Shown: piece after piece, positions 2,574 to 18,396 of the stretch
Position numbering within the stretch: position 1 is the stretch's first letter
Layout: the number at the start of each line of letters is the position of its first letter
Source: Eubacteriales bacterium
Lineage (GTDB): Bacteria; Bacillota; Clostridia; Lachnospirales; Lachnospiraceae
DNA: 22,524 bases
Direction: 5' to 3'
NCBI GenBank assembly: GCA_044425555.1
Contig: JAWXVF010000028.1
Location: forward strand, 1 to 22,524
The notes under the pieces: model-generated
What the model saw: the letters and a program-made list of their open reading frames with translations, nothing else
Database searches by the model: none
Told to the model about the DNA's origin: nothing
Translations under genes and position numbers: made by a program

Positions 2574-4622
2574 ATGGAGGAAAAATTGATAGATACAGAA
2601 TTAAAAAAACTAAAAGAAATGTTATGGAGTGCAGCCGATACCCTACGAGCTGATTCTGGGCTAAAATCAACAGAGTATGCAACACCTATATTAGGGCTTA
2701 TCTTCTTAAGATTTGCAGATAGTAAGTATCGTGAATATGAACATGAAATTCTAGAAGAATACAATCAAAATAAAGGTTCCAGAATGGAACGAGACATTAG
2801 TGAAATAGCAATTGAAAAATGTGGATTTTATTTACCAGATGAAGCAAGATACGATTATCTGCTTAATTTACCAGAAAGTGAAAATATTCCTGAAAAAGTA
2901 AAAGATGCTATGTGTATGGTTGAAAACTACACGAAAACACTTGCAGATACACTACCGAAAGATGAATATTATGCAGTAGATGGAAAAGATGGGAAAGCAG
3001 TTGTGAAAAGGTTATTAAAAGCCTTTAAAGACATACCAGATAATACCACTATTGATATTTTCGGTGAAATATATGAGTATTTCCTTGGTGAATTCGCCCT
3101 TGCAGAAGGACAAGGCGGTGGACAATTCTTCACACCACCATCAGTAGTAAAATATATGGTAGAGGTACTTGCACCTGTAGATGGGGAAATCTTTGATCCT
3201 GCTTGCGGAAGCGGAGGTATGTTTGTACAAGCTGCTCATTATATTCAAAAGCATAAGCAACAAGGCAATCCAATTAATCTACGTGCGTATGGTGTGGAAA
3301 AAGACAAATCCACAGTGAATCTTGCTAAGATTAATATGGTACTTCATAACATTAGAGGTACCATTACAGAAGCCAATAGTTATTATGCAGATCCTTATGA
3401 TTGTTTGGGGAAATTCGATTATGTTATGGCGAATCCTCCATTTAATGTAGATGGGGTGGAACTAGAAGCTGTAAAAAATCAGGAACGCTTTAATACATAT
3501 GGAGTACCACAGAATAAAACCAAAAGTAAAAAATCAGCAGGAGAAACAGTTCCTAATGGAAATTATCTATGGATTAATATGTTCGCTACTTCCCTAAAAG
3601 AAAACAAAGGAAAAGCAGCCCTTGTTATGGCAAATTCTGCCTCCGATGCAGGAAATAGTGAAAAAGAAATCCGTATGAAGTTAATAGAAAGTGGCGTGGT
3701 AAGTCAAATGGTTACTTTACCGTCCAACATGTTTTCCACAGTGACCTTGCCAGCAACCCTTTGGTTTTTCGATGCTAGCCATAAAAAGAAAGAGGAAATA
3801 TTATTCATAGATGCAAGGAATATATTTACACAAGTGGATAGAGCCCATAGAAAATTCACAGAAGAGCAGATTAAAAATCTTGCCATGATATCAAGGTTAT
3901 ACGAAGAAAAAAATGAAGAATATACGGTGTTACTAGACGAATACCAAGGAGAAGTATTAGAGAAATCTGCCTTATACCATGAATTACAAAGTACATGTTC
4001 GGAATTAGTGTATCATCTGTATAAAGATTCTGCTAATGAAATGGTAAAAAAATACAACGATAAAACGTATGTGCCATCTAAAAAAGTGCACGATTTCAAT
4101 GGGGTAGAAGATTATCATTTAATAGAAAAAGATTGTATCCATACAGTGGAACAAGCAAGTGCCATACAATCTATGGTAGAAAATCATACGAAAGAATTAA
4201 AGGAGCAGTTTCACGAGGTAGAAAGAGGAATTCATCAGAACCTAGATACTGCTAGCTATAAAAAAGAAATCATGGAAGCTGTTGATATTTTAAATCAATT
4301 GGATGTGTTAAAAGATGAAATTGTGTATTTCTTAGACCAGTGCATTTGGTTACAAGAACGTTTTCCACAAGGGATTTACCAAGATGTAACAGGACTCTGC
4401 AAAGTAGCCACTCTAGAAGGGGAAGATGGAATCAAAGACCAAGATTATTCTCTCAATCCGGGTAGATATGTAGGTGTTGTTATTGAAGATGATGGTATGA
4501 CAGAAGAGGAATTCAAGGAAGAAATGAGGAGTTTATATGTGGAACTTGAAATGCTAAACCAAGATGCAAGGGAGTTGGAGAGTAAGATAGGGGAGAATTT
4601 GAAGGGGTTGTTTAATGAATAG
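2574..4622 (+). CDS. hsdM: Type I restriction-modification system, N6-adenine DNA methyltransferase subunit M (long form, 682 aa)
   Basis: HsdM_N-like LWSAADTLR...LGLIFLRF, SAM motif I DPACGSGGMF, catalytic NPPF (nt 3432-3443) and C-terminal DYSLNPGRYVG. The real start may be in-frame TTG 2586, which is preceded by GGAGG. Confidence 0.95.
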   Translation: MEEKLIDTELKKLKEMLWSAADTLRADSGLKSTEYATPILGLIFLRFADSKYREYEHEILEEYNQNKGSRMERDISEIAIEKCGFYLPDEARYDYLLNLPESENIPEKVKDAMCMVENYTKTLADTLPKDEYYAVDGKDGKAVVKRLLKAFKDIPDNTTIDIFGEIYEYFLGEFALAEGQGGGQFFTPPSVVKYMVEVLAPVDGEIFDPACGSGGMFVQAAHYIQKHKQQGNPINLRAYGVEKDKSTVNLAKINMVLHNIRGTITEANSYYADPYDCLGKFDYVMANPPFNVDGVELEAVKNQERFNTYGVPQNKTKSKKSAGETVPNGNYLWINMFATSLKENKGKAALVMANSASDAGNSEKEIRMKLIESGVVSQMVTLPSNMFSTVTLPATLWFFDASHKKKEEILFIDARNIFTQVDRAHRKFTEEQIKNLAMISRLYEEKNEEYTVLLDEYQGEVLEKSALYHELQSTCSELVYHLYKDSANEMVKKYNDKTYVPSKKVHDFNGVEDYHLIEKDCIHTVEQASAIQSMVENHTKELKEQFHEVERGIHQNLDTASYKKEIMEAVDILNQLDVLKDEIVYFLDQCIWLQERFPQGIYQDVTGLCKVATLEGEDGIKDQDYSLNPGRYVGVVIEDDGMTEEEFKEEMRSLYVELEMLNQDARELESKIGENLKGLFNE

Positions 4623-4899
4623 TGAATTTTTAATTGACATTACAGAATCAAATAATTTTATAATGAATAATAAACCTAATGGTAAATTTGATAGAAAAAA
4701 AGGAATTGCGTTAATTGAGAAGCATAAATCTAAGGATATTGTTCTTGCTATGATTAACTCACCATCGAATAAGTCATTTATTCTATATGAGAATGCTGAT
4801 AATGAATTAATATATAATGTGTTATGTGAAATTAATGTCTATTTGTCTTGTAAAGAAATAATAAATGAAAATACACAGGATGGAGATGCAAATGACTAA
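4615..4899 (+). CDS. Hypothetical 94-aa protein embedded between hsdM and hsdS
   Basis: Its ATG overlaps the hsdM stop (ATGAATAG), and its stop overlaps a likely hsdS start (ATGACTAA). I recognise no domain. The C-terminus is acidic. Confidence 0.55.
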   Translation: MNSEFLIDITESNNFIMNNKPNGKFDRKKGIALIEKHKSKDIVLAMINSPSNKSFILYENADNELIYNVLCEINVYLSCKEIINENTQDGDAND

Positions 4900-6028
4900 A
4901 ATAAAAGTCAATAAATATGTGACTTTGGATAAAGTAGCATATTTTGCTAATGAGAAAATTGAATCAAAATATTTGAACAATAAAAACTATATTTCAACTG
5001 AAAATATGTTGCCAGATAAAAGTGGGATAACTATTTCTTTAAGTAATCCACAAGGGAACAATAAAAGTAAATTTTCGGAAGATGATATTCTTTTGTCAAA
5101 TATACGACCATATTTCAGAAAAATATGGTTTGCAAATATATCTGGTGGATGTTCTAATGATATATTAGTCTTAAAAGCAAAAGATAATATTTGTCCTAAG
5201 TTTTTATATTATGCGTTATCAGATAATAATTTTTTTAATTATGCTACAGTTACTTCCAAAGGTACTAAAATGCCTAGGGGAAGTAAACATGCAATAATGA
5301 AATATTTAGTTCCTAATTTAGACCAATCAGAACAAAAACGTATTACTAATATCCTATCAACCTACGATGATTTAATAGAAAACAACAATCGTAGAATAGA
5401 ACTACTAGAAAAATCAGCACAAGAGTTATACAAAGAGTGGTTTGTACGTTTTCGTTTTCCTAATTATGAGAATACAAAGTTTGTGAATGGATTGCCAGAA
5501 GGGTGGAGCAAAGGGAAATTTAAAAATAATGTAAAATATATTACGGGTAAATTGGATTCTAATGCCATGAAAGATGAGGGCGAGTTTAGTTTTTACACAT
5601 GTGCAAAGACAATTTATAAGACAAATACTTTTTGTTTTGATGGAGAGTGTGTATTATTAGGTGGTAATAATGCAACGGGAGATTTTTCATTGTTTTATGC
5701 TAATGAAAAATTAGATGCTTATCAGAGAACCTATATTATTACGCCACTTAATAATAATATAGGTTGTTCATATATATATTTCGTGTTGAAAAATTATCTT
5801 ATGCATTTGAAGCATGCTAGCATTGGAGCTACAACTAAATTTTTAACAAAGTCTATATTAGATAAAATTAACATAGTATTACCCGATAAGATGATAGCAA
5901 ATCAATTTAATAAAATTGTTTCTTCAATATTTTTAGAGATGAGTAAACTAAAATTAAACAATGTGAACCTAAAAAAACAGCGTGATTTATTATTACCACG
6001 CTTAATAAGCGGTAAACTGGAGGTGTAA
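4865..6028 (+). CDS. hsdS: Type I R-M specificity subunit S
   Basis: Two variable target-recognition halves are separated by the conserved central helix LIENNNRRIELLEKSAQELYKEWFVRFRFP. The C-terminal conserved helix is LKKQRDLLLPRLISGKL. The likely true start is ATG 4892, 6 nt after GGAG. Confidence 0.9.
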   Translation: MKIHRMEMQMTKIKVNKYVTLDKVAYFANEKIESKYLNNKNYISTENMLPDKSGITISLSNPQGNNKSKFSEDDILLSNIRPYFRKIWFANISGGCSNDILVLKAKDNICPKFLYYALSDNNFFNYATVTSKGTKMPRGSKHAIMKYLVPNLDQSEQKRITNILSTYDDLIENNNRRIELLEKSAQELYKEWFVRFRFPNYENTKFVNGLPEGWSKGKFKNNVKYITGKLDSNAMKDEGEFSFYTCAKTIYKTNTFCFDGECVLLGGNNATGDFSLFYANEKLDAYQRTYIITPLNNNIGCSYIYFVLKNYLMHLKHASIGATTKFLTKSILDKINIVLPDKMIANQFNKIVSSIFLEMSKLKLNNVNLKKQRDLLLPRLISGKLEV

Positions 6029-6029
6029 A

Positions 6030-6557
6030 ATGGCTGATAAAAATCAAACTCATGTGATAGAAAATGTATTTGATAATCTAAAAAAGATTACGCCCGTATT
6101 AATTACTATTGATATTTGTACAGGATTAATTATATTTTTGCCAAGTCATATGCTGGAAAGAATGAAATTGAATTTAATTTCAGATGAGTGGTTGTTATAT
6201 ATTAGCCTAATATTTTTATTTAGTGTATCATTAACAATTGTTATTATATGCTATAATATTGTGAAAGCCAAGCTATTGGAATTTCAGGAAATAAACTTGA
6301 GAAAAAAATTAAGGATTAGGTATATTAATTTAAGTAGTAGCCATAAGTCTCTTATTAGAAACTTATTAAATACTAAAGAGAAAAGTATAGAATTAAATGC
6401 TTATTCAGGAGATGTTGTGTACTTAGAAAATAATATTTTCATTATGTCGTCATCTAACATGACAGGTAGGTACGGTCAGAGTGAAATGTATTTACAATAT
6501 GTGCCACAACCATGGTTATTAGATTTATATAATAAAGAACCAGAATTATTTCAATAA
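6030..6557 (+). CDS. 175-aa two-transmembrane protein embedded between hsdS and hsdR; possibly SieB-like superinfection-exclusion family (tentative)
   Basis: It starts 1 nt after the hsdS stop. Two hydrophobic helices are present (VLITIDICTGLIIFLP and WLLYISLIFLFSVSLTIVIICYNIV), followed by a soluble C-terminal domain. The layout resembles what I recall of PF14163-type proteins. Confidence 0.6.
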   Translation: MADKNQTHVIENVFDNLKKITPVLITIDICTGLIIFLPSHMLERMKLNLISDEWLLYISLIFLFSVSLTIVIICYNIVKAKLLEFQEINLRKKLRIRYINLSSSHKSLIRNLLNTKEKSIELNAYSGDVVYLENNIFIMSSSNMTGRYGQSEMYLQYVPQPWLLDLYNKEPELFQ

Positions 6558-6569
6558 AGGAGGGACACC

Positions 6570-9500
6570 ATGCCAAGCTTCATATCCGAAGACATGATCG
6601 AACAAGCAACCATTCAAAAATTAGTTGAATGTAACCAATACAATTCCATTAATTGCTACACTTCCGATCCTGATACTTTGGAGGATGGAAGTGGTAGGGA
6701 ACATAAAAAGCAAGTGGTGTTACCTACTGTTTTACGTGAGAGTTTAGTACGGTTGAATAAACAGTTACCTATTTCCCTTGTAGAAAAAGTTGCCAAAGAA
6801 TTAGAGAAAACACCCACAACCGCTATGGTAATGGAGGCTAATTACCAATCTTATCAAACCATAAGAAATGGTATTGATGTAGAATATGATGAAAACGGCA
6901 AGAAGAAAAAAGGGAAACTAAAAGTAATTGATTTTACCCATCCAGATCATAATGATTTTACAGTTGTTTCCCAATTATGGATTCGAGGTGAGGTTCATTG
7001 GCGTAGACCAGATTTGATTCTCTATGTAAATGGATTGCCAATGGTATTTATAGAGTTGAAAAACTCTAATATTAAGGTGAAGAATGCCTATGACAAGAAT
7101 CTAATGGATTATAAAAAAGATATCCCTTATTTATTTCAGTATAACCAAGTTTGTGTATTATCCAATGGAACGGAGACGAGGATTGGTAGTTTTGCTGCTG
7201 GGTATGAACACTTTTTTGAGTGGCTGAAAATAGAAGATGAAAAAGAAAATCCCAATCGGAAAGAAATCAAAGACAATGCCATTAGCCTAGAATACTTAAT
7301 AAATGGCTTACTACGAAAAGAAGTATTAATAGATTATATAGAAAATTTTATCTTATACGATAGACAACGAATCAAATTAATTGCCAAGAACCATCAATAT
7401 TTAGGAGTGAATAATGCCTATGAAGCCTTTTTAAAGAGAGAACACCTAGAAGGAAAGTTAGGTGTATTTTGGCATACCCAAGGGAGTGGAAAGAGTTATT
7501 CCATGGTAATGCTTACAAGAAAAATAAAGCATAAAGTAAATGGGAATTTTACTTTTCTAGTAGTGACAGATCGAGTAGATTTAGATGATCAAATATGGAA
7601 AAATTTTTATCGTACAGAATTTATTTCTAAAGATGAAAAAGTTCGCCCTGCAACTGGTGCAAAACTTCGTGAAGAATTAAAGAATCATAAAACCATCTTA
7701 TTTACTACGATTTATAAGTTTAAATACGATAAAGGGAAAGAGTATCCTATTTTATCAGAGCGTGATGATATTGTTGTGATTGTAGATGAAGCACACAGAA
7801 CTCAATATAAGGATTTAGCAGAGAATATGCGAAAAGGATTACCTAATGCACAATTTCTAGCATTTACAGGAACTCCTTTATTAGGAGCAAAGCGATTAAC
7901 CAACGCTTGGTTTGGAGATTATGTTTCAGAATATAATTTTACCCAATCAGTCAATGATCATGTAACAGTTCCATTATATTATATCAATGGTATGAAAGAG
8001 GTACGATTGCAAAATGATTTTCTTGATAGTGATTTGTCAGAAATATTGGAAGATGAAAATCTGTCAGATTCGGAACGAGAAAGACTTGAAAATCAGTATG
8101 CCAAGGAATTAGAAGTGATTAAGCGTGATGATCGATTAAAAACCATAGCAAGACACATTGCATACCATTTTCCACGTAGAGGATTTCTAGGAAAAGGTAT
8201 GGTAATTTCCGTTGATAAATTTACCGTAGTTCGCATGTATGATATGGTAAATAATTACTGGAAGGAAGAAATTAAAAATCTAAATGTGGAGATTACGAAC
8301 ACAGCTGATGAAAATAAGCGTATAGAACTAAAAAGAATGGTAGATTATATGCGAAAAGTACAAATGGCAGTTGTAGTAAGTGGAGAAGAGAAAGAAGAAG
8401 AGAAATTTCAAAAACAAGAACTCACCATAAAAGTACATCGTGATAAAATGAATGCAGTCGATGAAAATGGAATGGATATAGAAGATAATTTTAAAGATGT
8501 CAATCACCCTTTAAGCCTAGTGTTTGTATGTTCTATGTGGTTGACGGGGTTTGACGCACCTTCCATATCTACTTTATATTTGGACAAGCCTATGAAGGGA
8601 CATACTTTGATGCAAACCATTGCTAGAGCTAATCGAGTGTACCCAGAGAAAACAAGTGGCATTGTCATTGGCTATTTAGATGTGTTTAAATCTTTGAAAA
8701 AAGCATTACTAGACTATGCAGCAGGGGATGAGGAAGAGCTACCAGTTAAGAATATTGAGAAATTGTACGAACAGCTTTTAGAAGCTATTGAAATGACGAA
8801 AACCTTTTGTACTACACAAGGCATTGATTTAGCAAGTGTAGAGGAGAAAGAGGATGTGTTTGCCAATTTATCTAAGTTAGAAGAATTTGCCAATATCCTT
8901 GTATCCAATGATGAAGTGAAAAATGAATTTCGAGTTCTTGCTAATACCGTTGGGAATTTATATGAAGCATTACGACCAGATATTTTCAAAATGGATTTTC
9001 GTGCCAATGAAAAAGAAATCATACTATACTTAAAAGGAATCCTTGATGGGAAAATAAGACCTGAAAAGATAGAGGCTGCTAAGTATAAGATAGATGAGTT
9101 GTTAAATCAAAGTATAGTTGCAGAAGAAACGACTACCTATGATGTGGGAAATTCTCAGGAAACTTTACCTGCCATTACCACGTCAGAACCTATTGATTTA
9201 TCGAAAATTGATATAGATGCATTAAAAGAGCAAATGCAGAAAGCAAAATATAAGAATCTAGAAATAGCCAATCTACGTGAGCATATTGAGAAAATTTTGG
9301 CACAGATGATAAAGAAAAATAGAACCCGTACTAGTTTTGCAGAACGATTCCGTCATATTATAGATGAATACAATGCAGGAGGGGCATACAATGATGAGTT
9401 TTATAAAAAGTTATTAGAATTAATGCGAGAATTGCAAGAGGAAGAACGTAGGCATATTAGGGAAGACTTAAGTGAGGAAGAACTGGAATTTTACGATTTG

Positions 9501-9776
9501 TTACAAAAAGATAAATTAACGAAGGAAGAATTAAAGCGTGTAAAACTTGCTGCTAGTACACTCTACCAAACGTTGCTTGCGAAAAAAGAAGAATTATTCG
9601 TAGTAGGGTGGGAAAAAGACGAACAGCCAAAAGAAAAAGTAAGAAAAGAAATTATGGCAATCTTAAATGAATATCTTCCGGATAGTTACAACCGTGAAAT
9701 TTTTGCTAATAAATCGGATGTAGTCTTCTATCATATTGTGGACCAAGCGTTGATGGGATTGAATTGGATTGCTTAG
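6570..9776 (+). CDS. hsdR: Type I R-M restriction subunit R (nuclease plus SF2 helicase/translocase)
   Basis: AGGAGGG RBS. PD-(D/E)xK-type motif PDLILYVNGLPMVFIELK, Walker A HTQGSGKS, DEAH-type VVIVDEAHRTQ, motif VI QTIARANR, and a long helical C-terminal domain. Confidence 0.95.
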   Translation: MPSFISEDMIEQATIQKLVECNQYNSINCYTSDPDTLEDGSGREHKKQVVLPTVLRESLVRLNKQLPISLVEKVAKELEKTPTTAMVMEANYQSYQTIRNGIDVEYDENGKKKKGKLKVIDFTHPDHNDFTVVSQLWIRGEVHWRRPDLILYVNGLPMVFIELKNSNIKVKNAYDKNLMDYKKDIPYLFQYNQVCVLSNGTETRIGSFAAGYEHFFEWLKIEDEKENPNRKEIKDNAISLEYLINGLLRKEVLIDYIENFILYDRQRIKLIAKNHQYLGVNNAYEAFLKREHLEGKLGVFWHTQGSGKSYSMVMLTRKIKHKVNGNFTFLVVTDRVDLDDQIWKNFYRTEFISKDEKVRPATGAKLREELKNHKTILFTTIYKFKYDKGKEYPILSERDDIVVIVDEAHRTQYKDLAENMRKGLPNAQFLAFTGTPLLGAKRLTNAWFGDYVSEYNFTQSVNDHVTVPLYYINGMKEVRLQNDFLDSDLSEILEDENLSDSERERLENQYAKELEVIKRDDRLKTIARHIAYHFPRRGFLGKGMVISVDKFTVVRMYDMVNNYWKEEIKNLNVEITNTADENKRIELKRMVDYMRKVQMAVVVSGEEKEEEKFQKQELTIKVHRDKMNAVDENGMDIEDNFKDVNHPLSLVFVCSMWLTGFDAPSISTLYLDKPMKGHTLMQTIARANRVYPEKTSGIVIGYLDVFKSLKKALLDYAAGDEEELPVKNIEKLYEQLLEAIEMTKTFCTTQGIDLASVEEKEDVFANLSKLEEFANILVSNDEVKNEFRVLANTVGNLYEALRPDIFKMDFRANEKEIILYLKGILDGKIRPEKIEAAKYKIDELLNQSIVAEETTTYDVGNSQETLPAITTSEPIDLSKIDIDALKEQMQKAKYKNLEIANLREHIEKILAQMIKKNRTRTSFAERFRHIIDEYNAGGAYNDEFYKKLLELMRELQEEERRHIREDLSEEELEFYDLLQKDKLTKEELKRVKLAASTLYQTLLAKKEELFVVGWEKDEQPKEKVRKEIMAILNEYLPDSYNREIFANKSDVVFYHIVDQALMGLNWIA

Positions 9777-9781
9777 AGTAA

Positions 9782-10570
9782 ATGCATGAAAATAAGAGGG
9801 AGGTAATTATGATTGAGAAGACACAAAATGTATTAATATCAACCTTATTAGGTAAGGAACTAATTTTTGAAATTGATAATGATGATTTAAAACCAAAAAC
9901 AATTGAATTGTTCAAGAGGTTTATTTCTCATATTCCGATTGTAGAAATTCAAAATGAAACCTTTTATAGAGCCAGAGTCATTGCTGATGAGGACGGTATG
10001 GAACAAGGAATTGTGAGAGAAAATGGAATTCCAATTACTGGATATAATACAATATATTCAGGTGTTCCGCCAAAAGAAGTGATAAAGCATGAAGGTAGAG
10101 TAAATCGAATAAATGAACAGGTATTATATATTGCAGAAGATCAAGAAACAGCAATTCGTGAACTAAAAGATGAGAAATCTAAATATTTTTCTGTTGCAGA
10201 ATATTTTGTAAAAGAGCCAATTAAGGTGTTTGATTGTTCTGCATTTACGAAAGAACAACTAGAGGAGACATTGTCACCAAGTATTAGAGATGAGTTTGAA
10301 AATAAATATCAGATGTCATTGACAATATTGTATATAAAGCTACAAGAACATTTAACGTTTGGACCATCAAAAAAAGATGGCGAAAAGGAGTATAAATTTT
10401 CCTTAAAAATGATTGATTTCATGAAGGAATATCATAATATATCAGGAGTTAAATATGTTTCGTCGTACACATATAAATCTAATGTAGCAATTTGGGATGA
10501 TAATAAATTTTTGAAATGTGTAAATAGTATGGTTGAACGAAAGAAGGGGAAGCATAACAAAGACAATTAA
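9782..10570 (+). CDS. RES-domain protein (NAD+-targeting toxin superfamily) with no adjacent Xre-type antitoxin
   Basis: The R/E/S signature is in the canonical order: FYRAR..., EGRVNRINEQVLYIAEDQETAIRE, and GVKYVSSYTYKSNVAIWD. The probable true start is ATG 9809, 5 nt after AGAGGGAGG. Confidence 0.75.
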   Translation: MHENKREVIMIEKTQNVLISTLLGKELIFEIDNDDLKPKTIELFKRFISHIPIVEIQNETFYRARVIADEDGMEQGIVRENGIPITGYNTIYSGVPPKEVIKHEGRVNRINEQVLYIAEDQETAIRELKDEKSKYFSVAEYFVKEPIKVFDCSAFTKEQLEETLSPSIRDEFENKYQMSLTILYIKLQEHLTFGPSKKDGEKEYKFSLKMIDFMKEYHNISGVKYVSSYTYKSNVAIWDDNKFLKCVNSMVERKKGKHNKDN

Positions 10571-10613: not shown

Positions 10614-11816
10614 ATGAAATTAAGAAAAATTAACTTTAAAAACCACCCCATTTTAAAAGATTTACAAGTAAGTTTGGAAGATGAAAAAGGGGAAATAGTA
10701 AATACAGTTATATTTATTGGGGATAATGGAAGTGGAAAAACAAGTATTCTTAGAGGAATTTTGGAGAACTTTCAATCTTCTAAGGTTGAAAAATTCCTAA
10801 AAGGAACAGATTTGGATAGTTTAGAGCTTTCTTTTGGAAAAGAACTACTCAAAACAATACCAGATAATGCATTGTCAGAATATTCTGTGATATATTGGGG
10901 AATAAAAAATTCTGTTTTTGCTATTGACGAATCTGATCAGGATGCAACAAGTATAGGAAAGATTGTATTCATGCCAACGGAAATTAATTTTTCTATGGCA
11001 ACTGCAATAGATACAAGAAAAGAAATTCCAGATCAATTTATTAATATTATTGATCAAAAGATTGCAAATGATATATCTTCTTTTGTTGCTACAGCAATTG
11101 AAACAGAAGTATTTAAAAATGAAGATGTGGCAGTAAAAGAAAGTATGAAAAAAGTTTGTGATGAAATCAATTCTATTTTTCAATGTATGGATTTAGAGAT
11201 TGAACTTGTAGGATTATCTAAAGATGAGAAGAAGCAACCTATTTTCAAGAATCACAATAATGATACGTTTGCAATTGAGGATTTATCATCAGGAGAAAAG
11301 CAACTATTCATACGTGCGTTATCTTTAAAGTTTTTAAACATTAATGATTCTATTATTCTTATTGATGAACCTGAAATTTCGCTACACCCACAATGGCAAC
11401 GAAAGATTATCAGCGTATATGAAAGTATTGGTAGGAACAATCAATTAATTATTGCAACTCATTCGCCCCATGTCATAGGAAATATTAGAAAAGAGCAATT
11501 ACGAGTTTTACATCGAGATCATAATGGTATTCAGATAGTGCCAACGGAGGAAGTAGAACGAACATATGGACAGACTATAGAATCCATATTAACTCACAAT
11601 ATGGGACTTGAAAGTGTACGAAATGAAGAATTACAATTTAAAATAGAACAAATTCAAAAATTATTACGAAATGAGAACGCCTTAGAAAATAAGGAATTTC
11701 AAGAATTATTAATAGATATTTCAGAACACCTAGATGATTCCGATGTAGAGATGGCACTTATCAATGCACAAATAAAACGGATGAAAATGAGGGGTACTAG
11801 AAATGTTGAACAATAA
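10614..11816 (+). CDS. ptuA: ABC/SMC-like AAA ATPase, Septu PtuA-like
   Basis: Walker A GDNGSGKTS, signature LSSGEKQ, Walker B IILIDEPEISLHPQWQ, H-loop IIATHSPH. An HNH partner gene overlaps downstream. Confidence 0.75.
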   Translation: MKLRKINFKNHPILKDLQVSLEDEKGEIVNTVIFIGDNGSGKTSILRGILENFQSSKVEKFLKGTDLDSLELSFGKELLKTIPDNALSEYSVIYWGIKNSVFAIDESDQDATSIGKIVFMPTEINFSMATAIDTRKEIPDQFINIIDQKIANDISSFVATAIETEVFKNEDVAVKESMKKVCDEINSIFQCMDLEIELVGLSKDEKKQPIFKNHNNDTFAIEDLSSGEKQLFIRALSLKFLNINDSIILIDEPEISLHPQWQRKIISVYESIGRNNQLIIATHSPHVIGNIRKEQLRVLHRDHNGIQIVPTEEVERTYGQTIESILTHNMGLESVRNEELQFKIEQIQKLLRNENALENKEFQELLIDISEHLDDSDVEMALINAQIKRMKMRGTRNVEQ

Positions 11817-12375
11817 GAAAGCAAATGAGCCATGCGAGTATACGGATTTGGCAAAGAAAGTATCTAATTATCAGGAGTTTGATACTCATATAAAAGAGAT
11901 ATTGAGAGATAATTTCATTTGTGAGCAAGATTCTTACTGTCCATATTGTGAGCGAATTATTGAGAATAATGTTAACAGTTGTCATATTGAACATATAAAG
12001 CCACAATCTGCTTATCCTAATCAGAGCAAAGAGTATACCAATATGATTTTATCTTGTAATAATAAAAATACATGTGGGATACGAAAAGGGAATCAATACC
12101 ATGAGGATTTTATAAATCCTACGATAGAAAATCCAACATTTTATTTAAAATACGATTTAGCGTCAGGTGAAGTTTATTCCGTTGATGATAATCCTAAGGG
12201 AGAGTACACCATTAAAGTTTTGAACTTAAATGACAAAAAACTGAAACAAATGAGAAGGAATAAAATTTTTACTTATATAAATTTAGATAGTTCCATGCAA
12301 TTAAAACTTATAAATTGGGAACTAGAGAATTTGTATGGGAGTAACTTGATTTTCCGCAAATGCATTTGGAATTAA
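11803..12375 (+). CDS. ptuB: HNH endonuclease, Septu PtuB-like / TIGR02646-like (retron-type HNH)
   Basis: It overlaps the ATPase gene by 14 nt. The Cys/His motifs are CPYCERI...SCHIEHIKPQS...NMILSCNNKNTCGIRKGN. Confidence 0.75.
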   Translation: MLNNKKANEPCEYTDLAKKVSNYQEFDTHIKEILRDNFICEQDSYCPYCERIIENNVNSCHIEHIKPQSAYPNQSKEYTNMILSCNNKNTCGIRKGNQYHEDFINPTIENPTFYLKYDLASGEVYSVDDNPKGEYTIKVLNLNDKKLKQMRRNKIFTYINLDSSMQLKLINWELENLYGSNLIFRKCIWN

Positions 12376-12449: not shown

Positions 12450-13604
12450 TTACCCATCCCAAGTCCTTCCTTCCATCCAATCCCTAAATTCCTCCGCTGT
12501 CATACAACCATTAACATAGTCACGTCTAACCTGTTGGAGTTGTTTAGACCAGTTTAGAAAGCTATCACGTATATGGTTAGCAACATCTAAATCATATTCA
12601 TTGTCTACATGACGTTCCATACGTGCATGAGTTGATTTATAGAGTTTGCTATACATTTTTAGTAAAGGATCTTTCTCCACATTTTCTTTATATTTTTGCT
12701 TATTACCGATTTCTTTGCAAGATTTTCCGTTTGTATCTACTCTGTCACAATATAAAGTATCGTGTTTAGAGAGAAGGACAAAATAGCGATTACAGTTTTG
12801 ACATTTACGAATGCGTAGACCACGTTTAATGACTTCGATAAATTCAAAATATAATAATTCTTCAAAGTCTTTGAGTAGTACATACTCAGTAATATTAGCA
12901 CTAGTAGTATTTAGATTATGTATTTCTGTGAGAATGTCCATATGCCGTTGTAAATTACTACTTGCATTGGTACCAATTAATTCTTGCTGTTCAAAGTCTA
13001 ATTTCCCATTTTTCGTGGGAGCTACACTTACTCCGGTTAGAAAGTGAAAATTAGAAAAATCAGGGTATAGACCAAGAAAGGATAGAAAACCTGCTGTAAT
13101 AGATGATAATGGTTTATCAAAATCAATATCGCAACAAAAAGTAATACCCTTTTCAAAGAGTTCCAGTAGTACCAGTACCTCATCTAAAGTAGCAACACCT
13201 AATTGTAACTTTTCAGGATAGGGATTCTGGCTTTGAAAGATTACATTTAATTTTTCACGAGTATAAAAATGTGCAATAGGAAAGCTTTGATATAATATGG
13301 TGACTATTTCATATAAATATTGTTCTGAAATTTTAGAAACAATGGTAATATCGTTATCATTCATATGCTTTGTATCCGTATGCATAGTGGAGATGGTCTC
13401 TTTTGCTTGGTCAACTTTACATTTATATTCGCTTAAATCAGCTAGAAGAAATTCTACCAATAATTTTCCAATATAATCGCAATCAAACATTGCTGCGCCT
13501 GCATCTGCATATACCATATATCTAACCCTATTATGAATGTCTGTATAAGCTTTCATATAGGGTTTCTTTATGTTTGAAAACATAGTGATTATCCTCTCTT
13601 TCAC
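12450..13604 (-). CDS. Hypothetical protein with a C-terminal zinc ribbon (possibly DUF6076-like); a backbone gene divergent from rep
   Basis: 384-aa ORF. The Cys cluster is CQNCNRYF...YCDRVDTNGKSCKE. The likely real start is ATG at 13583, about 8 nt downstream of AGAGAGGA on the minus strand; the track start is GTG 13604. Confidence 0.65.
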   Translation of the reverse strand: MKERIITMFSNIKKPYMKAYTDIHNRVRYMVYADAGAAMFDCDYIGKLLVEFLLADLSEYKCKVDQAKETISTMHTDTKHMNDNDITIVSKISEQYLYEIVTILYQSFPIAHFYTREKLNVIFQSQNPYPEKLQLGVATLDEVLVLLELFEKGITFCCDIDFDKPLSSITAGFLSFLGLYPDFSNFHFLTGVSVAPTKNGKLDFEQQELIGTNASSNLQRHMDILTEIHNLNTTSANITEYVLLKDFEELLYFEFIEVIKRGLRIRKCQNCNRYFVLLSKHDTLYCDRVDTNGKSCKEIGNKQKYKENVEKDPLLKMYSKLYKSTHARMERHVDNEYDLDVANHIRDSFLNWSKQLQQVRRDYVNGCMTAEEFRDWMEGRTWDG

Positions 13605-13824
13605 AATCTAGTAATTTAACCTATAAAAATTTCTTTTGTTACACCTTATTTTTTTAATCTTCCTTTTTTTGTATGATAACACAATGTATATGGTATATTT
13701 TGTCAAAACCTGTCATGGATAATTACTTTTTACAAATTTATGGAAAATTAGTCCTTCATTTTTAATGTATTACATTTGCGATAAACTAAGCAAGTCAACA
13801 AAATAAGAAAGAAAGGGGGAACTT

Positions 13825-14814
13825 ATGGAACACACAAACTATGTATTTTATCGTTTGCCAAAGGTATTGTTTACCAATGAGAAATTACACCAATTATCAA
13901 TTGAGGCAAAATTATTGTATACAGTTATGCTAGATCGTCTTTCTTTATCCATAATCAATCAGTGGAAAGATAAGGAAGGAGAAGTATACATTTATTTTAC
14001 TATTGAACATGGGTGTGAACTTTTAGGTAAGAGTTATTCGAAAATATCCAAAGTAATGGCAGAATTAGAAGCACTCAAGTTGATTGTTCGTAAACGCCAA
14101 GGGCAGGGGAAACCATCTAGGATTTATGTGAAAACAGATATGTTACAGACACCTATCATAGAAGCAGAACCTACAAATATAGCGGACAAGATAGGAGATA
14201 TACAAGTATCAAGAGATAGTTCTTTCACGGTTCAAGACCTATTAGAAACAGATACGAATAAGACTAATAGGAATCAAAATAATACCAATAAGATAGAGTC
14301 AATCCATCTATCCTATGAGAATGGGATAGAAGAAGACACTTGTTTAGAAGATGTTATTTTCAAAGAATTGTTAGAGGAACAAACACTACCTAGAGAATAT
14401 CTTTACCAAGAGGAGAAATTAAGGATTGCCTTTCAGATTTTAACGGAACATGAAATATTTGTTAGGAATAGTAAAAAGAATTATGATTCCCAACAAGATT
14501 TAAGTATTTTGAATTTATTGATACAAGCATTATGTGAAATGCTAACCGAGAAAAAGCCTATGCAGATAAAGGGCTATTTAGTTACGGTTAGTCAAGTCTA
14601 CAAAAAATTAATAACCTATCTTAGCTTTGAACATCATCATCCATCTATGTATACATTTTATACAACTGTGATGGATGACTACAAAACAGGCGCTATTCAT
14701 AGTGAAATAAAACATCATCTTGGCTATATGAAAGCATGTATCTGGAATGTTTTGCTAGTAGGAGACATTAGCCTTCAAACGAAATTGTTAAATCACTTTG
14801 GAGGGCAAATGTAA
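13825..14814 (+). CDS. Replication initiator protein, RepA_N family
   Basis: The N-terminus YVFYRLPKVLF...LSIEAKLLYTVMLDRLSLS...VRKRQGQGKPSRIYV is the typical RepA_N signature. RBS AAAGGGGGA. Confidence 0.85.
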   Translation: MEHTNYVFYRLPKVLFTNEKLHQLSIEAKLLYTVMLDRLSLSIINQWKDKEGEVYIYFTIEHGCELLGKSYSKISKVMAELEALKLIVRKRQGQGKPSRIYVKTDMLQTPIIEAEPTNIADKIGDIQVSRDSSFTVQDLLETDTNKTNRNQNNTNKIESIHLSYENGIEEDTCLEDVIFKELLEEQTLPREYLYQEEKLRIAFQILTEHEIFVRNSKKNYDSQQDLSILNLLIQALCEMLTEKKPMQIKGYLVTVSQVYKKLITYLSFEHHHPSMYTFYTTVMDDYKTGAIHSEIKHHLGYMKACIWNVLLVGDISLQTKLLNHFGGQM

Positions 14815-14820
14815 AGGCAA

Positions 14821-14920
14821 CACACCCAAAGGGTGTGGCAAGCATCCTATCTGTAAGACGCTAACGCATCTTAATCATAAGATTTACAATCTTATGATGG
14901 ATAGGTTCCTGCTAACGCAG
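14821..14920 (+). promoter_or_regulatory. Candidate origin of transfer (oriT) upstream of mobC and the relaxase gene
   Basis: Hairpin CACACCC-AAA-GGGTGTG (14821-14837). An 11-bp perfect inverted repeat, ATCATAAGATT-tac-AATCTTATGAT (14874-14898), is flanked by CCTATC (14846-14851) and GATAGG (14900-14905). The 9-bp direct repeat GCTAACGCA occurs at 14860-14868 and 14911-14919. Confidence 0.5.
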
Positions 14921-14937
14921 ATAAAAAAATAAAAGAA

Positions 14938-15273
14938 ATGGAGAAGTGGAAAATGAATAAAACAAATAGTATTACCTTTCGTGTATCAGACCATGATAAA
15001 AAATCAATTGTAGCAAGAGCGAAAAAAGGGAAGATGAAAACTTCTGATTTCTGTCGTTATGCTGTATTAGGAAAGGAAGTACGACACATTGAAGGGCTAA
15101 AGGAATTGATATTTGAATTAAATAAGATTGGAAATAATCTAAACCAATTAACGGTATTATGTCACCAAAGACGAGTGGATAATCCTAATTTAGAAGAAAT
15201 AACTTACCAATTAAATAGCGTATTTGATGTAATCGTAATGGTACTAGGAGGTGATGACTATAGCAATTGTTAA
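14938..15273 (+). CDS. mobC: Relaxosome accessory protein MobC
   Basis: The ELNKIGNNLNQLTVL motif is typical of the MobC family, with a ribbon-helix-helix-like N-terminus (ITFRVSDHDKKSI). The likely start is ATG 14953, after GGAGAAGTGG. Confidence 0.85.
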   Translation: MEKWKMNKTNSITFRVSDHDKKSIVARAKKGKMKTSDFCRYAVLGKEVRHIEGLKELIFELNKIGNNLNQLTVLCHQRRVDNPNLEEITYQLNSVFDVIVMVLGGDDYSNC

Positions 15274-16417
15274 ACCCATTAAAGTACGAAGTGGAAATTT
15301 GGCTGGACTGAAAGGAGTTTTAACTTATATTCAAGAAGACCATAAAACAGAAGATGGAAAGCTTGTGTGGGGAAAAGATTTGGTAAAAGGGAAGGAATTT
15401 GAGCAGATGTTTATTACAAAAAAAATGCATCAGAAAATAAGCGGTAGACAGTATGCTCATTTTGTGCAAAGTTTTGGTGTAGATGATTTAGTGACACCAG
15501 AGATGGCGTTTACAATTTCTAAGGAATTTATTAAGCGTAATCACAAGTTTGATGATTTCCAAGTGGTATCTGCAGTGCATACAAATGAGAAGCATATGCA
15601 TATTCATTATATTGTGAATTCGGTTGGCATAGAAAAAGGAGAGAAGTGGCAATGCTCCCCTAAAGATTTAGAAAAAATGCGTAATATTTCAGATGAATTA
15701 TGCTACGAGTATGGTTTATCGGTTATTGAACATCGAGGGAACTTCCATCAAAAATATGGGGAATATAAAGCATTTAAAAGTTGGAAACAACAACTTGCAA
15801 GTGACATTGCAAAAAGTGTAGAAGAAAGTTTTTCACTGGAAGATTTCTACCACAATTTAGATAGCAGGGGGATTGATTGTAGTTTTGGTAATCATAATAT
15901 TATGTTTCAGGTGTTTGCTGGGTATTGTGGCTTAAACGGGGAACGATTCTGTAGCAATTATAAGCTAATGTCCTATGGAGATTTTAGTAGGGAGAATATC
16001 TTAAATAGTGTAGATTATAATGATTATAATCTAAAATCAGGATTAATTGCTATACATCAAGGTGGTGATATTTTTCAGGAATTAGCACAACTTGATATAT
16101 GGGGAAAGGAAGATATGAATATAGATATGTCTAGCTTGTATCAGGCAGTAATACAAGAAATAGAATTTAAAGGAAAACCGTGGTATCAGATACAGACTAT
16201 TATTGTCCAATTACATGCAGACCAAATGAAACAAAAATTAGCTAGAGAAGGGCTATTGGCACTACATGAACAAAAGAAACAGAGAAAACAGCAAAACATA
16301 TTTCTGCCATCAATCTGCAATCTACTTGAAGAGTTTTATTATTGGAAATACCAAAAAGAACTTAATAGAAATGACAGGTATAGAGAAGAAGAGTTAGAAG
16401 ATATGTGGGAACTCTAA
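15251..16417 (+). CDS. Relaxase/mobilisation nuclease (MobA/VirD2-type)
   Basis: N-terminus TIAIVKPIKV..., the histidine triad region HTNEKHMHIHYIVNSV, and AGGAGG immediately upstream. It overlaps the mobC 3' end. Confidence 0.9.
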   Translation: MMTIAIVKPIKVRSGNLAGLKGVLTYIQEDHKTEDGKLVWGKDLVKGKEFEQMFITKKMHQKISGRQYAHFVQSFGVDDLVTPEMAFTISKEFIKRNHKFDDFQVVSAVHTNEKHMHIHYIVNSVGIEKGEKWQCSPKDLEKMRNISDELCYEYGLSVIEHRGNFHQKYGEYKAFKSWKQQLASDIAKSVEESFSLEDFYHNLDSRGIDCSFGNHNIMFQVFAGYCGLNGERFCSNYKLMSYGDFSRENILNSVDYNDYNLKSGLIAIHQGGDIFQELAQLDIWGKEDMNIDMSSLYQAVIQEIEFKGKPWYQIQTIIVQLHADQMKQKLAREGLLALHEQKKQRKQQNIFLPSICNLLEEFYYWKYQKELNRNDRYREEELEDMWEL

Positions 16418-16683
16418 TAGCTTGTCATAAAAAGAAAGCAATTCACATAATATTAAACAGCATAATGGAGGTGCAGGAGATGAAAGAAAAGGAAAAATTA
16501 AATATTACATTTCATAATCCAAACACTGGCGATGAGTTAATTAAGGAGTTGATTAGAATTTCTGCGTCAATGGCACATGAAACGGTGAAGAAAAAATTAC
16601 TTGCACTGGAACAAGAAGAAATGAATACATATACTTTGCAAAATGAAACACAAGATAATGAAGATGATGAATGGGAACGATAG
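16405..16683 (+). CDS. Small hypothetical protein; likely start at ATG 16480
   Basis: GGAGG (16467-16471) lies 8 nt before ATG 16480, giving MKEKEKLNITFHNPNTGDELIKELIR.... The C-terminus is acidic. I recognise no domain. Confidence 0.5.
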   Translation: MGTLIACHKKKAIHIILNSIMEVQEMKEKEKLNITFHNPNTGDELIKELIRISASMAHETVKKKLLALEQEEMNTYTLQNETQDNEDDEWER

Positions 16684-16694
16684 GATAGGGATTG

Positions 16695-16733
16695 GGGAAT
16701 AACTTTTACAAGGAGTTATTCCCTTCCTTCTTT
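16695..16733 (+). terminator. Intrinsic terminator ending the rep-mob transcription unit
   Basis: 10-bp stem, GGGAATAACT (16695-16704) pairing with AGTTATTCCC (16714-16723), with a 9-nt loop and a T-rich tail ttccttcttt. Confidence 0.7.
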
Positions 16734-16785
16734 ACATGAGTCAAAAGTTGCTAAAAGAAAATATGATAATTTTCTAGGAAATAGA

Positions 16786-16814
16786 TTGACACATTAACAT
16801 AATGGACTTATAAT
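16786..16814 (+). promoter_or_regulatory. Perfect consensus sigma-A promoter: TTGACA, 17-nt spacer, TATAAT
   Basis: TTGACA at 16786-16791 and TATAAT at 16809-16814, with a 17-nt spacer. It lies upstream of the AlbA_2 gene and recombinase gene pair. Confidence 0.6.
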
Positions 16815-16860
16815 AAAATAGATGTAACAGATATAGAAAAATAACGAATAATATGTCGAA

Positions 16861-18396
16861 ATGGAGGTAATCATGGGGATAGCAACCAATATCAAGACTT
16901 TGCTATCAGGGAATGTAGTTGAATGGGCAAGAATTGAATACAAAGAAACATGGGATGCTGTTGCTTCTTTGAAAACTATATGTGCATTTGCTAATGATCT
17001 TGATAATTGGGGTGGTGGATATCTTGTCATAGGTGTTAAGGAGGAAGAAGGTCGTCCAATATACCCATTACAAGGAATAGCAACTGATAAAATAGATAGT
17101 CATCAAAAGGATATTCTATCAAAATGTAAACTGATTCGTTCAGAATATATGCCAATAATAGAAGTAGTGGAATATCAAGAGAGAAACTTTATCATACTTT
17201 GGTGTCCAGGAGGAAATACAAGACCTTATTCATCACCTAAGACTATGGGTAAAGATAATAAAGATCGGATTTATTATATACGCAAAGGGTCAAGTACCAT
17301 AATCCCAACTTCAGAAGAAGAGAAGGACTTATTTCATTTAGCCAATCGAGTACCTTTTGATGATAGAATAAATAATCAAGGGGAAATGACAGATTTGAAT
17401 ATTACACTGATTCAAAGTTATTTGAAGGAAGTAAATAGTTCTTTGTTTGAAAAATTAAAAACAGAGGATTTTACTTCTGTTTGTCGTGATATGAATATTA
17501 TTGGGAATCTTCCAGAATATACGAAACCTAAAAATATAGGACTTATGTTCTTTAGTCTAGAACCAGAAAAGTTCTTCCCCTATGCCCAAATAGACGTAGT
17601 GCAATTTCCACAAGGATTAGGGGGCGATAATATCATAGAGCAAACTTTTAAAGGACCCATTCAGCAACAACTAAGAGATGCACTTATATATATTAAAAAT
17701 ACAATTATTACAGAAAAAGTGATTAAACACCCTCATAAGGCAGAAGCAGATCGGTTTTTCAATTATCCTTATGCTGCCATTGAAGAAGCCTTATCTAATG
17801 CAGTGTATCATAGAGGTTATGATGAAAGAGAACCCATTGAAGTACGTGTAGAGAATGATAGGATAGAGATTGTAAGCTTTCCTGGTCCGGATCGTTCAGT
17901 AACCGATGAAGGTCTGAAAAGTTATCGTGTGTCCAATCGCAGATATAGAAATAGAAGAATTGGAGAGTTTTTAAAAGAATTGCATTTGACAGAAGGAAGA
18001 AATACAGGATTTACAAAAATATTAAATGCTTTGAACGCAAATGATTCCCCACAGCCTGAATTCGAAACTGATGAGGATAGAACTTATTTTATTGCAAGAT
18101 TTTTCATACATGAATGTTTTAAAATAGAAAAATATGGAGTGGATTTAGAAGTAGAAACACCTTCAATAACACCTTCAATAGCACCTTCAAAAAGCGATCT
18201 GCTATTACAAGAAAAAATCATTAAATTAATAAGAAAAAATCCTAAAATTACAAGAAAAGATATGGAAAACAAATTGAAAATTTCTGAATTTATGTTAAGA
18301 AAACAAGTGGAATTTTTAAAGAAAAATAATACCATCGAGTACGTAGGTTCTAGCAAAGGTGGTAATTGGATTATAAATAGGGAGGGCAACTCATGA
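16861..18396 (+). CDS. AlbA_2 (Schlafen-like 'divergent AAA') / HATPase_c_4-like ATP-binding protein with a C-terminal winged HTH
   Basis: N-terminus GNVVEWARIEYKETW...ICAFANDLDNWGGGYLVIGV is AlbA_2-like. The central region EEALSNAVYHRGYDEREPIEVRV...GRNTGFTKI follows. The C-terminal HTH is KIIKLIRKNPKITRKDMENKLKISEFMLRKQVEFLKKNN. The likely start is ATG 16873, after GGAGG. Confidence 0.75.
   Translation: MEVIMGIATNIKTLLSGNVVEWARIEYKETWDAVASLKTICAFANDLDNWGGGYLVIGVKEEEGRPIYPLQGIATDKIDSHQKDILSKCKLIRSEYMPIIEVVEYQERNFIILWCPGGNTRPYSSPKTMGKDNKDRIYYIRKGSSTIIPTSEEEKDLFHLANRVPFDDRINNQGEMTDLNITLIQSYLKEVNSSLFEKLKTEDFTSVCRDMNIIGNLPEYTKPKNIGLMFFSLEPEKFFPYAQIDVVQFPQGLGGDNIIEQTFKGPIQQQLRDALIYIKNTIITEKVIKHPHKAEADRFFNYPYAAIEEALSNAVYHRGYDEREPIEVRVENDRIEIVSFPGPDRSVTDEGLKSYRVSNRRYRNRRIGEFLKELHLTEGRNTGFTKILNALNANDSPQPEFETDEDRTYFIARFFIHECFKIEKYGVDLEVETPSITPSIAPSKSDLLLQEKIIKLIRKNPKITRKDMENKLKISEFMLRKQVEFLKKNNTIEYVGSSKGGNWIINREGNS
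18157..18192 (+). repeat. Three tandem 12-nt repeats inside the AlbA_2-like ORF, in the linker before the wHTH
   Basis: ACACCTTCAATA, ACACCTTCAATA, GCACCTTCAAAA encode TPSI-TPSI-APSK. Unit-number changes would stay in frame. Confidence 0.8.

Follow-up and report, generated by a model that had tools for sequence, protein, structure and literature searches.

What part can a RES-domain protein play when its gene stands between a restriction gene and a Septu pair with no antitoxin gene at its side? The question is raised by a 22,524-nucleotide (nt) stretch of DNA from a Eubacteriales bacterium (GenBank assembly GCA_044425555.1, contig JAWXVF010000028.1), hereafter called the window, meaning the whole stretch at its full length. 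An open reading frame (ORF) on its plus strand, at 9782–10570, had been described in an earlier, sequence-only reading as an orphan RES toxin-like gene. We find that this ORF encodes a genuine RES-domain protein with an intact set of catalytic residues, and that its nearest relatives of known function are the antiphage RES proteins called aRES. On balance, we consider it probable that the protein is a self-contained, infection-activated NAD+ enzyme of the aRES type, its gene being a single cassette in a composite defence island that an integrated, mobilisable element carries.

The frame 9782–10570 is the maximal one for the RES gene, and translation most likely starts within it at the second in-frame ATG, at 9809, which yields a stand-alone coding sequence (9809–10570, plus strand) for a protein of 253 residues. 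Three observations lead us to prefer this start over 9782. First, a Shine-Dalgarno-like site, GAGGGAGG, can be read from the sequence at 9796–9803 on the plus strand, separated from the ATG by a spacer of 5 nt. Second, an identical public protein of 253 residues (P0001), annotated as 'RES domain-containing protein' in a Eubacteriales metagenome-assembled genome, begins at the equivalent of 9809. Third, the N-termini of RES homologues line up with this start. The identical protein is also encoded, with the ORF intact, by two additional contigs that were obtained in two other runs of sequencing. The coordinates and PADLOC assignments agree with the location that had been reported: hsdR ends at 9776, leaving a gap of 32 nt to the RES gene, and the Septu gene for PtuA starts at 10614, 43 nt after it. 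No terminator-like hairpin or site was found between hsdR and PtuB.

The RES identity proposed from the sequence is confirmed. Taken as a lone sequence, the protein gives a borderline match to the Pfam RES family (PF08808; residues 92–233, positions 10082–10507, plus strand), scoring 24.4 bits where the gathering cut-off is 23.2, with an E-value of 3.2e-5. The assignment is secure because the family context backs this single score. A profile search of 1.84 billion representatives retrieved 1079 relatives at E ≤1e-3, including 20 at ≤1e-30, and RES is matched by all 86 aligned relatives (best E 3e-17). The AlphaFold2 (AF2) model is confident (pLDDT 94.5, pTM 0.90), and its first Foldseek match in the PDB is the RES toxin MbcT (6fkg_B, E 2.8e-5, probability 1.0). 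Next in rank come ParT, VPA0770 and the P. putida RES toxin, and lower down the ADP-ribosyltransferase (ART) folds of PARP and cholera toxin. PADLOC, NCBIfam and PHROGs returned no meaningful match for the protein.

Seven columns are invariant in the 86-sequence alignment, namely R54, R56, R97, Y107, E118, Y195 and S218, and N99 of the GRVNR motif is nearly so. The R, E and S signature blocks that had been recognised from the sequence are thus all present, with one reassignment. The 'R' had been placed in FYRAR; we instead infer that R97 of GRVNR (10094–10108, plus strand) is the arginine that names the domain, since the Pfam match starts at residue 92 and so takes in GRVNR, with R97 21 residues before E118, and leaves out FYRAR. 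The YRAR motif (Y53, R54, A55 and R56; 9965–9976, plus strand), whose two arginines are invariant within this family, would then be an additional motif. The 'E' is E118 of the TAIRE motif (10160–10162) and the 'S' is S218 of KYVSS (10460–10462), both on the plus strand. Substitution of the catalytic residues on proper alignment, which had been raised as a concern, is not seen at R97, E118 or S218 in any of the 86 sequences. The same positions can be followed into proteins of known function: GRVNR aligns with GRMN of the validated aRES, E118 with AIAE of aRES and ETAMAE of NatT, and S218 with the FKS motif of aRES and the YRS motif of NatT, while the three validated aRES carry the YRAR-like motifs LFRAR, FYRAR and LHRAR at the aligned position. 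By analogy with MbcT, NatT and aRES, the window protein would act as an NAD+ phosphorylase or NADase.

The sequence-only reading had held that a RES effector in such a setting looks undescribed. This view must be given up in the light of a preprint posted by the Sorek laboratory in January 2026 (Osterman et al., bioRxiv 10.64898/2026.01.28.702374), which described and tested aRES as stand-alone RES-domain proteins whose genes reside in defence islands and share no operon with others. According to that work, aRES shields E. coli from phages; upon infection, NAD+ is depleted to nicotinamide and ADP-ribose-1''-phosphate (ADPR-1''-phosphate, or ADPR-1P), and active-site mutations abolish defence (bioRxiv 10.64898/2026.01.28.702374). 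The proteins were defined bioinformatically as being 300–600 residues long and containing both RES and PF18870 (HEPN/RES-NTD1), and they occur in ~4% of genomes, with Bacillota as the richest phylum at ~10% of genomes; their trigger, sensor and means of silencing were not identified in the preprint (bioRxiv 10.64898/2026.01.28.702374).

We compared the window family with three experimentally validated aRES sequences taken from the preprint's supplement, using a broad 86-sequence alignment (A2), a close-family alignment that is also broad (A3) and a narrower one (A1). In hmmsearch, profile A2 scores the three aRES at 91, 88 and 77 bits, whereas the best toxin–antitoxin RES toxins among PDB sequences, NatT and ParT, reach 14.7 and 10.6 bits, both at E ≥0.1; the same profile and the same database size underlie both sets of A2 scores. 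Profile A3 scores the validated aRES at 36–49 bits, and profile A1 finds among PDB sequences chance-level matches alone, to GrlR and PAS. Profile–profile comparison points the same way. In hhalign, A3 aligns with E. coli UC5 aRES at a probability of 97.9 (E 6.4e-13), with window residues 47–234 on aRES residues 175–358, and it aligns from residue 27 with eight long aRES-like representatives of 350–400 residues at a probability of 99.9 (E 8e-35). All of these long representatives have long helical N-termini, several carry CxxC...CxxC Zn-ribbon motifs and one has a weak PF18870 match. On the strength of the A2 bit scores (77–91 against ≤15) and the hhalign scores, the RES core of the window protein is clearly of the aRES type. 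The motifs GR.N, LY.A...TA..E and Y.S...N..LF/W are common to both, in addition to the YRAR-like motif; like the aRES genes, the window gene stands alone in a defence island and has no antitoxin, and its host belongs to the phylum richest in aRES. It falls outside the aRES definition in its length and in having no PF18870 domain, and we class it as a short variant of aRES-type RES. Antiphage RES proteins that stand alone are already known as a concept, and what is new here is the short form without the N-terminal domain.

The aRES relationship also bears on the chemistry. A stand-alone defence protein could instead ADP-ribosylate a host or phage target protein in the manner of ParT, rather than carry out bulk NAD+ phosphorolysis; ParT proteins are indeed the second-best PDB matches, and RES is a fold of the ADP-ribosyltransferase superfamily, of which PARP and cholera toxin appear in the Foldseek list. 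We hold this to be very improbable: by structure the protein comes closest to MbcT, an NAD+ phosphorylase, and aRES, the closest sequence relatives of known chemistry, yield ADPR-1P.

What precedes the catalytic core is short. The sequence-only reading had noted an N-terminal extension of ~55 residues and suggested a comparison with HEPN/RES-NTD profiles. About 50 residues precede YRAR in the window protein, as compared with 131 positions in the PF18870 profile, and hmmscan gave no PF18870 match at E ≤1 for either the whole protein or residues 1–54 (the preprint's own method was HHsearch). The validated aRES do match PF18870 by hmmscan, over approximately residues 29–148, with E-values of 3.6e-4 and 2.7e-10. 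Residues 1–54 match no Pfam family. In the AF2 model, residues 1–42 (9809–9934, plus strand) form a hairpin of two helices, 5–23 and 29–39, packed on the RES domain at pLDDT >90; it takes the place that the Zn-ribbon/PF18870 domain occupies in aRES. The second helix of the hairpin lines up with the linker helix found after PF18870 in aRES-like proteins, and the hairpin is kept in an FRG–RES fusion of 574 residues (P0008), where profile positions 6–249 align with residues 328–572. For these two reasons it looks like an integral part of the RES module rather than an independent domain, and the ~55-residue extension resolves into a hairpin of ~42 residues.

In P0008 an N-terminal FRG domain (PF08867, E 8e-19) is fused to the RES core, and a second protein of 380 residues (P0040) joins the core to a C-terminal winged-helix/MarR-like domain. 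The two fusions suggest that the RES module stays constant while accessory domains are exchanged around it. Short proteins are common in the family: among the full-length proteins of the best 150 representatives tabulated, 92 of 111 have 45–90 residues before YRAR, as against 11 with >130. Short forms make up a sizeable group, one that is left out by the filter applied in the preprint.

How might such an enzyme be held in check? The RES fold is that of toxin–antitoxin toxins, and the window protein could be one of these, with an antitoxin that is now lost, lies elsewhere in the genome, or takes the form of a small RNA or peptide not recognised as such. It has in common with the RES-Xre toxins (MbcT/MbcA, ParT/ParS, the P. 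putida RES-Xre pair and NatT/NatR) the RES fold and the R/E/S triad, and NAD+ is the expected substrate. The window gene differs from them in having no upstream Xre/COG5642/DUF2384 antitoxin, the upstream gene being hsdR; in a sequence similarity that is barely detectable (≤15 bits, E ≥0.1); and in encoding the additional hairpin at the N-terminus, together with ~35 conserved residues inserted between YRAR and GR.N. The sequence-only reading had seen no Xre/ParS-type antitoxin beside the gene, and our searches agree. No plausible small antitoxin ORF was found near the RES gene on either strand, where there are just short, compositionally odd antisense ORFs, and no Rfam family matches in the window. 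One of the antisense ORFs, at 9706–9915 (69 residues), was considered as an antitoxin and rejected on account of its low complexity, its TTG start codon and its overlap with both the end of hsdR and the beginning of the RES gene.

The homologues offer this toxin–antitoxin explanation some encouragement, and rather more to set against it. We defined ~18 distinct genomic contexts of close RES homologues, with neighbours typed by Pfam, PADLOC and PHROGs, and found them highly variable. The contigs of three other homologues (P0011, P0017 and P0015) were too short to be of use. A small DNA-binding gene stands upstream of the RES gene in just two of these, and the two are of unrelated families: a MazE/AbrB-like gene encoding 91 residues, with a 68-nt gap, and a generic HTH_3 gene encoding 103 residues (in L037), with a 54-nt gap. 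The L037 HTH_3 protein gave no match to the Xre/MbcA/ParS toxin-binding domain. A third group has an unknown gene, encoding 166 residues, 6 nt downstream of the RES gene, and frameshifted RES copies exist. Most contexts have no small adjacent gene, so that the consistent pairing with a small antitoxin, which had been raised as a way for the orphan interpretation to fail, is not observed. Within the window itself there is neither a candidate gene nor an Rfam match; the ORF is intact, its catalytic residues are complete and identical copies are found on two further contigs, and persistence of an unrestrained NADase is unlikely. The sequence is, moreover, far nearer to aRES than to the toxin–antitoxin RES toxins. 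We regard a toxin–antitoxin origin as improbable.

A second way of keeping the enzyme silent is to make it the effector of a neighbouring machine. The RES protein might act as a PrrC-like guard, restrained by the type I restriction–modification (R-M) system and freed when a phage inhibits restriction, or as an extra effector of PtuA, an ABC-type ATPase sensor. The layout resembles that of PrrC and RloC, in which a suicidal effector gene lies in or beside a type I R-M operon, and one other RES homologue has the same layout; the enzymes are unrelated (a RES NAD+ enzyme as opposed to an anticodon nuclease). In the window, the genes are co-oriented, with gaps of 32 nt and 43 nt and no terminator-like site. 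In the second R-M context the order is hsdR-hsdM-hsdS, and the RES homologue follows after 30 nt. Type I R-M genes adjoin RES in these two of the ~18 contexts, with differing gene orders. Systems of the R-M type and ATPases of the AAA_15/21 type are among the commonest genes of defence islands. The recurrent R-M adjacency is suggestive, though to some degree expected in such islands.

The association with PtuAB is confined to a single locus, represented by the window and two identical contigs (hsdR, RES, PtuAB), and to the question raised earlier, whether close homologues always adjoin PtuAB or type I R-M genes, the answer is no. The closest relatives of the window PtuA (68% and 63% identity) belong to PtuAB cassettes in BREX operons that contain no RES gene, and we take PtuAB and RES to be independent cassettes on this account. 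These PtuA relatives (L076/L077, 5001–6795; L079, 898–2716) each have a PtuB-sized partner; in one case the order is BrxC, PtuA-PtuB, PglX, and in the other PtuAB is followed by PglZ-BrxL. The Septu pair acts like a mobile unit of two genes that enters the operons of other defence systems. We considered the RES gene as a third Septu gene and rejected this, the pairing being found at this locus alone and no other RES context containing PtuAB.

Other homologues have ATPases of different kinds as neighbours. In two cases an AbiLi-like AAA_15/21 ATPase gene (L068, 4714–8038, and L067, 4644–6768; PADLOC PDLC02335, E 3e-77 and 5e-73) lies directly upstream of RES, with gaps of 93 nt and 22 nt, so that RES occupies the place where AbiLii is expected; one RES protein of the two is a distant homologue. 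In L068 the RES gene is followed by a gene for a DUF4379 Zn-ribbon protein, and Kiwa and a Hypoth_Ymh/HEPN gene are nearby. An AbiLi-like ATPase together with RES may constitute an undescribed two-gene system. In L039/L043 (6026–7993), the gene for a KAP-family NTPase of 655 residues (PADLOC candidate system PDC-S49, E 1.6e-53) runs 14 nt into the start of RES, which suggests translational coupling. A further homologue has a divergent DUF488 gene upstream and is followed by a gene for a NACHT/pentapeptide protein.

The AbiLi-like, KAP and NACHT neighbours speak for an effector role in a coupled system, as do the short gaps in the window and the second R-M operon. Set against this role, neither R-M genes nor an ATPase is found in most contexts, the nearest PtuA relatives retain PtuB and have no RES, and the L068 ATPase is unrelated to the window PtuA beyond its Walker motifs. 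Chance adjacency is to be expected with genes so frequent in defence islands, and the validated aRES act alone. We judge it unlikely that the RES protein serves a neighbouring machine. The earlier suggestion that the toxin is controlled by its neighbours finds little support, given the PtuA relatives without RES and the two R-M contexts among ~18, and the RES protein most likely acts alone.

The remaining contexts are varied. In one it is divergent from three tyrosine recombinase genes, in another a relaxase gene precedes it and two GNAT genes follow, and in others it follows a PDDEXK_2 gene or stands by itself, flanked by a surface-protein gene and by convergent HTH genes. In L061 (4689–9950; also L047 and L060), RES occupies a moron-like position in a prophage tail module: genes for the major tail protein (phrog_88) and a chaperone-like protein (phrog_709) precede it, and the gene for the tape measure protein (phrog_58, E 1e-138) comes after it. 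A scan of viral contigs with profile A1 found no RES relatives, and the one match that tblastn returned from a phage collection was distant and lay on a contig there from Salmonella enterica whole-genome shotgun sequencing. Frameshifted or split RES copies were seen in Lachnospiraceae genomes and metagenome contigs (L045, ~8000–8550; L046, 7980–8623; L063, 5971–6722; L064, 3009–3600); the copy in L063 still follows a MazE-like gene, and those in L046 and L064 lie beside transposase-like genes. The homologues among prophage tail genes, beside relaxases and in the island with Kiwa support a mobile, defence-related setting for the family.

Returning to the self-contained aRES-type enzyme, we propose the following sequence of events. 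The RES protein would be made in an inactive state and would need no antitoxin. Phage infection would switch it on, and an active site formed by R97, E118 and S218, with R54/R56, Y107 and Y195, would then convert NAD+ and phosphate to nicotinamide and ADPR-1''-phosphate. The infected cell would arrest, by abortive infection or growth arrest, and phage replication would be blocked. As the protein has neither a Zn-ribbon nor HEPN/RES-NTD1, control and sensing would have to reside in the RES core and the two-helix hairpin.

Several observations weigh against this proposal. At 253 residues the window protein is shorter than the 300–600 residues of the aRES definition, and it lacks the N-terminal Zn-ribbon/PF18870 domain of ~145 residues; without the PF18870 domain it has no recognisable sensor. 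The short gaps to hsdR and PtuA and the lack of a terminator-like site make co-transcription or functional coupling possible. A same-strand P-loop NTPase gene adjoins RES in five of the ~18 contexts (PtuA, AbiLi-like twice, KAP and NACHT), which hints that some RES members work with NTPase partners. Finally, several RES homologues are frameshifted pseudogenes.

The surroundings of the gene in the window are those of a composite island, containing AbiD, a type I R-M operon that encloses a SieB-like gene, RES, Septu and a Schlafen/AlbA_2 ATPase. The R-M operon (2574–9776, plus strand), which we treat as context and not as part of the RES unit, was identified from its translations and the Pfam families of identical contigs. 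It comprises hsdM (2574–4622), a small ORF (4615–4899), hsdS (4865–6028), the SieB-like gene (6030–6557) and hsdR (6570–9776), the last identified by HSDR_N, ResIII and T1RH-like_C on the identical contigs. The small ORF, of 94 residues, spans the hsdM/hsdS junction and has no family match. The SieB-like gene, between hsdS and hsdR, encodes a membrane protein of 175 residues (PF14163, E 7e-14), a family linked to superinfection exclusion. The operon seems to serve as a landing pad for extra defence genes. The Septu pair (10614–12375, plus strand), also context and not part of the RES unit, consists of overlapping, full-length genes for PtuA (10614–11816; PADLOC PDLC00289, E 2.9e-111) and PtuB (11803–12375; PDLC00332, E 3.7e-42).

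Upstream of hsdM, at 609–2481, are an AbiD/Abi_2 gene (PADLOC AbiD, E 4e-56), a DUF4869 gene and a small downstream ORF, so the defence island extends leftward. Downstream of Septu, 12450–19931 holds genes for DUF6076 (minus strand), RepA_N, a MobC/NikA-like protein, a relaxase, a Schlafen/AlbA_2-HATPase_c_4 protein and a large serine recombinase. This mobilisable module stops just upstream of housekeeping genes, including guaA from 20977. As a whole, the block has the appearance of an integrated, mobilisable element.

What would a short aRES-type protein mean for the family? A tentative possibility is that the short RES proteins form a large, overlooked sister group of aRES, in which either the core and hairpin suffice for both silence and sensing, or the protein is a plug-in effector for P-loop NTPase sensors such as the AbiLi-like, KAP, NACHT and PtuA proteins. 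If the core and hairpin suffice, the sensor and switch of aRES would lie in the catalytic module and not in the PF18870 domain. The preprint established NAD+ phosphorolysis by RES proteins as an antiphage strategy. The short family would be missed both by PADLOC 2.0 and by the criteria used there, which exclude proteins of <300 residues or without PF18870. Since 92 of the 111 close representatives are short forms, our analysis suggests that the prevalence of RES-based defence has been underestimated, especially in gut Clostridia. As a minimal natural version, consisting of the core without the presumed sensor domain, the window protein would offer a direct test of where the sensing and autoinhibition of aRES reside.

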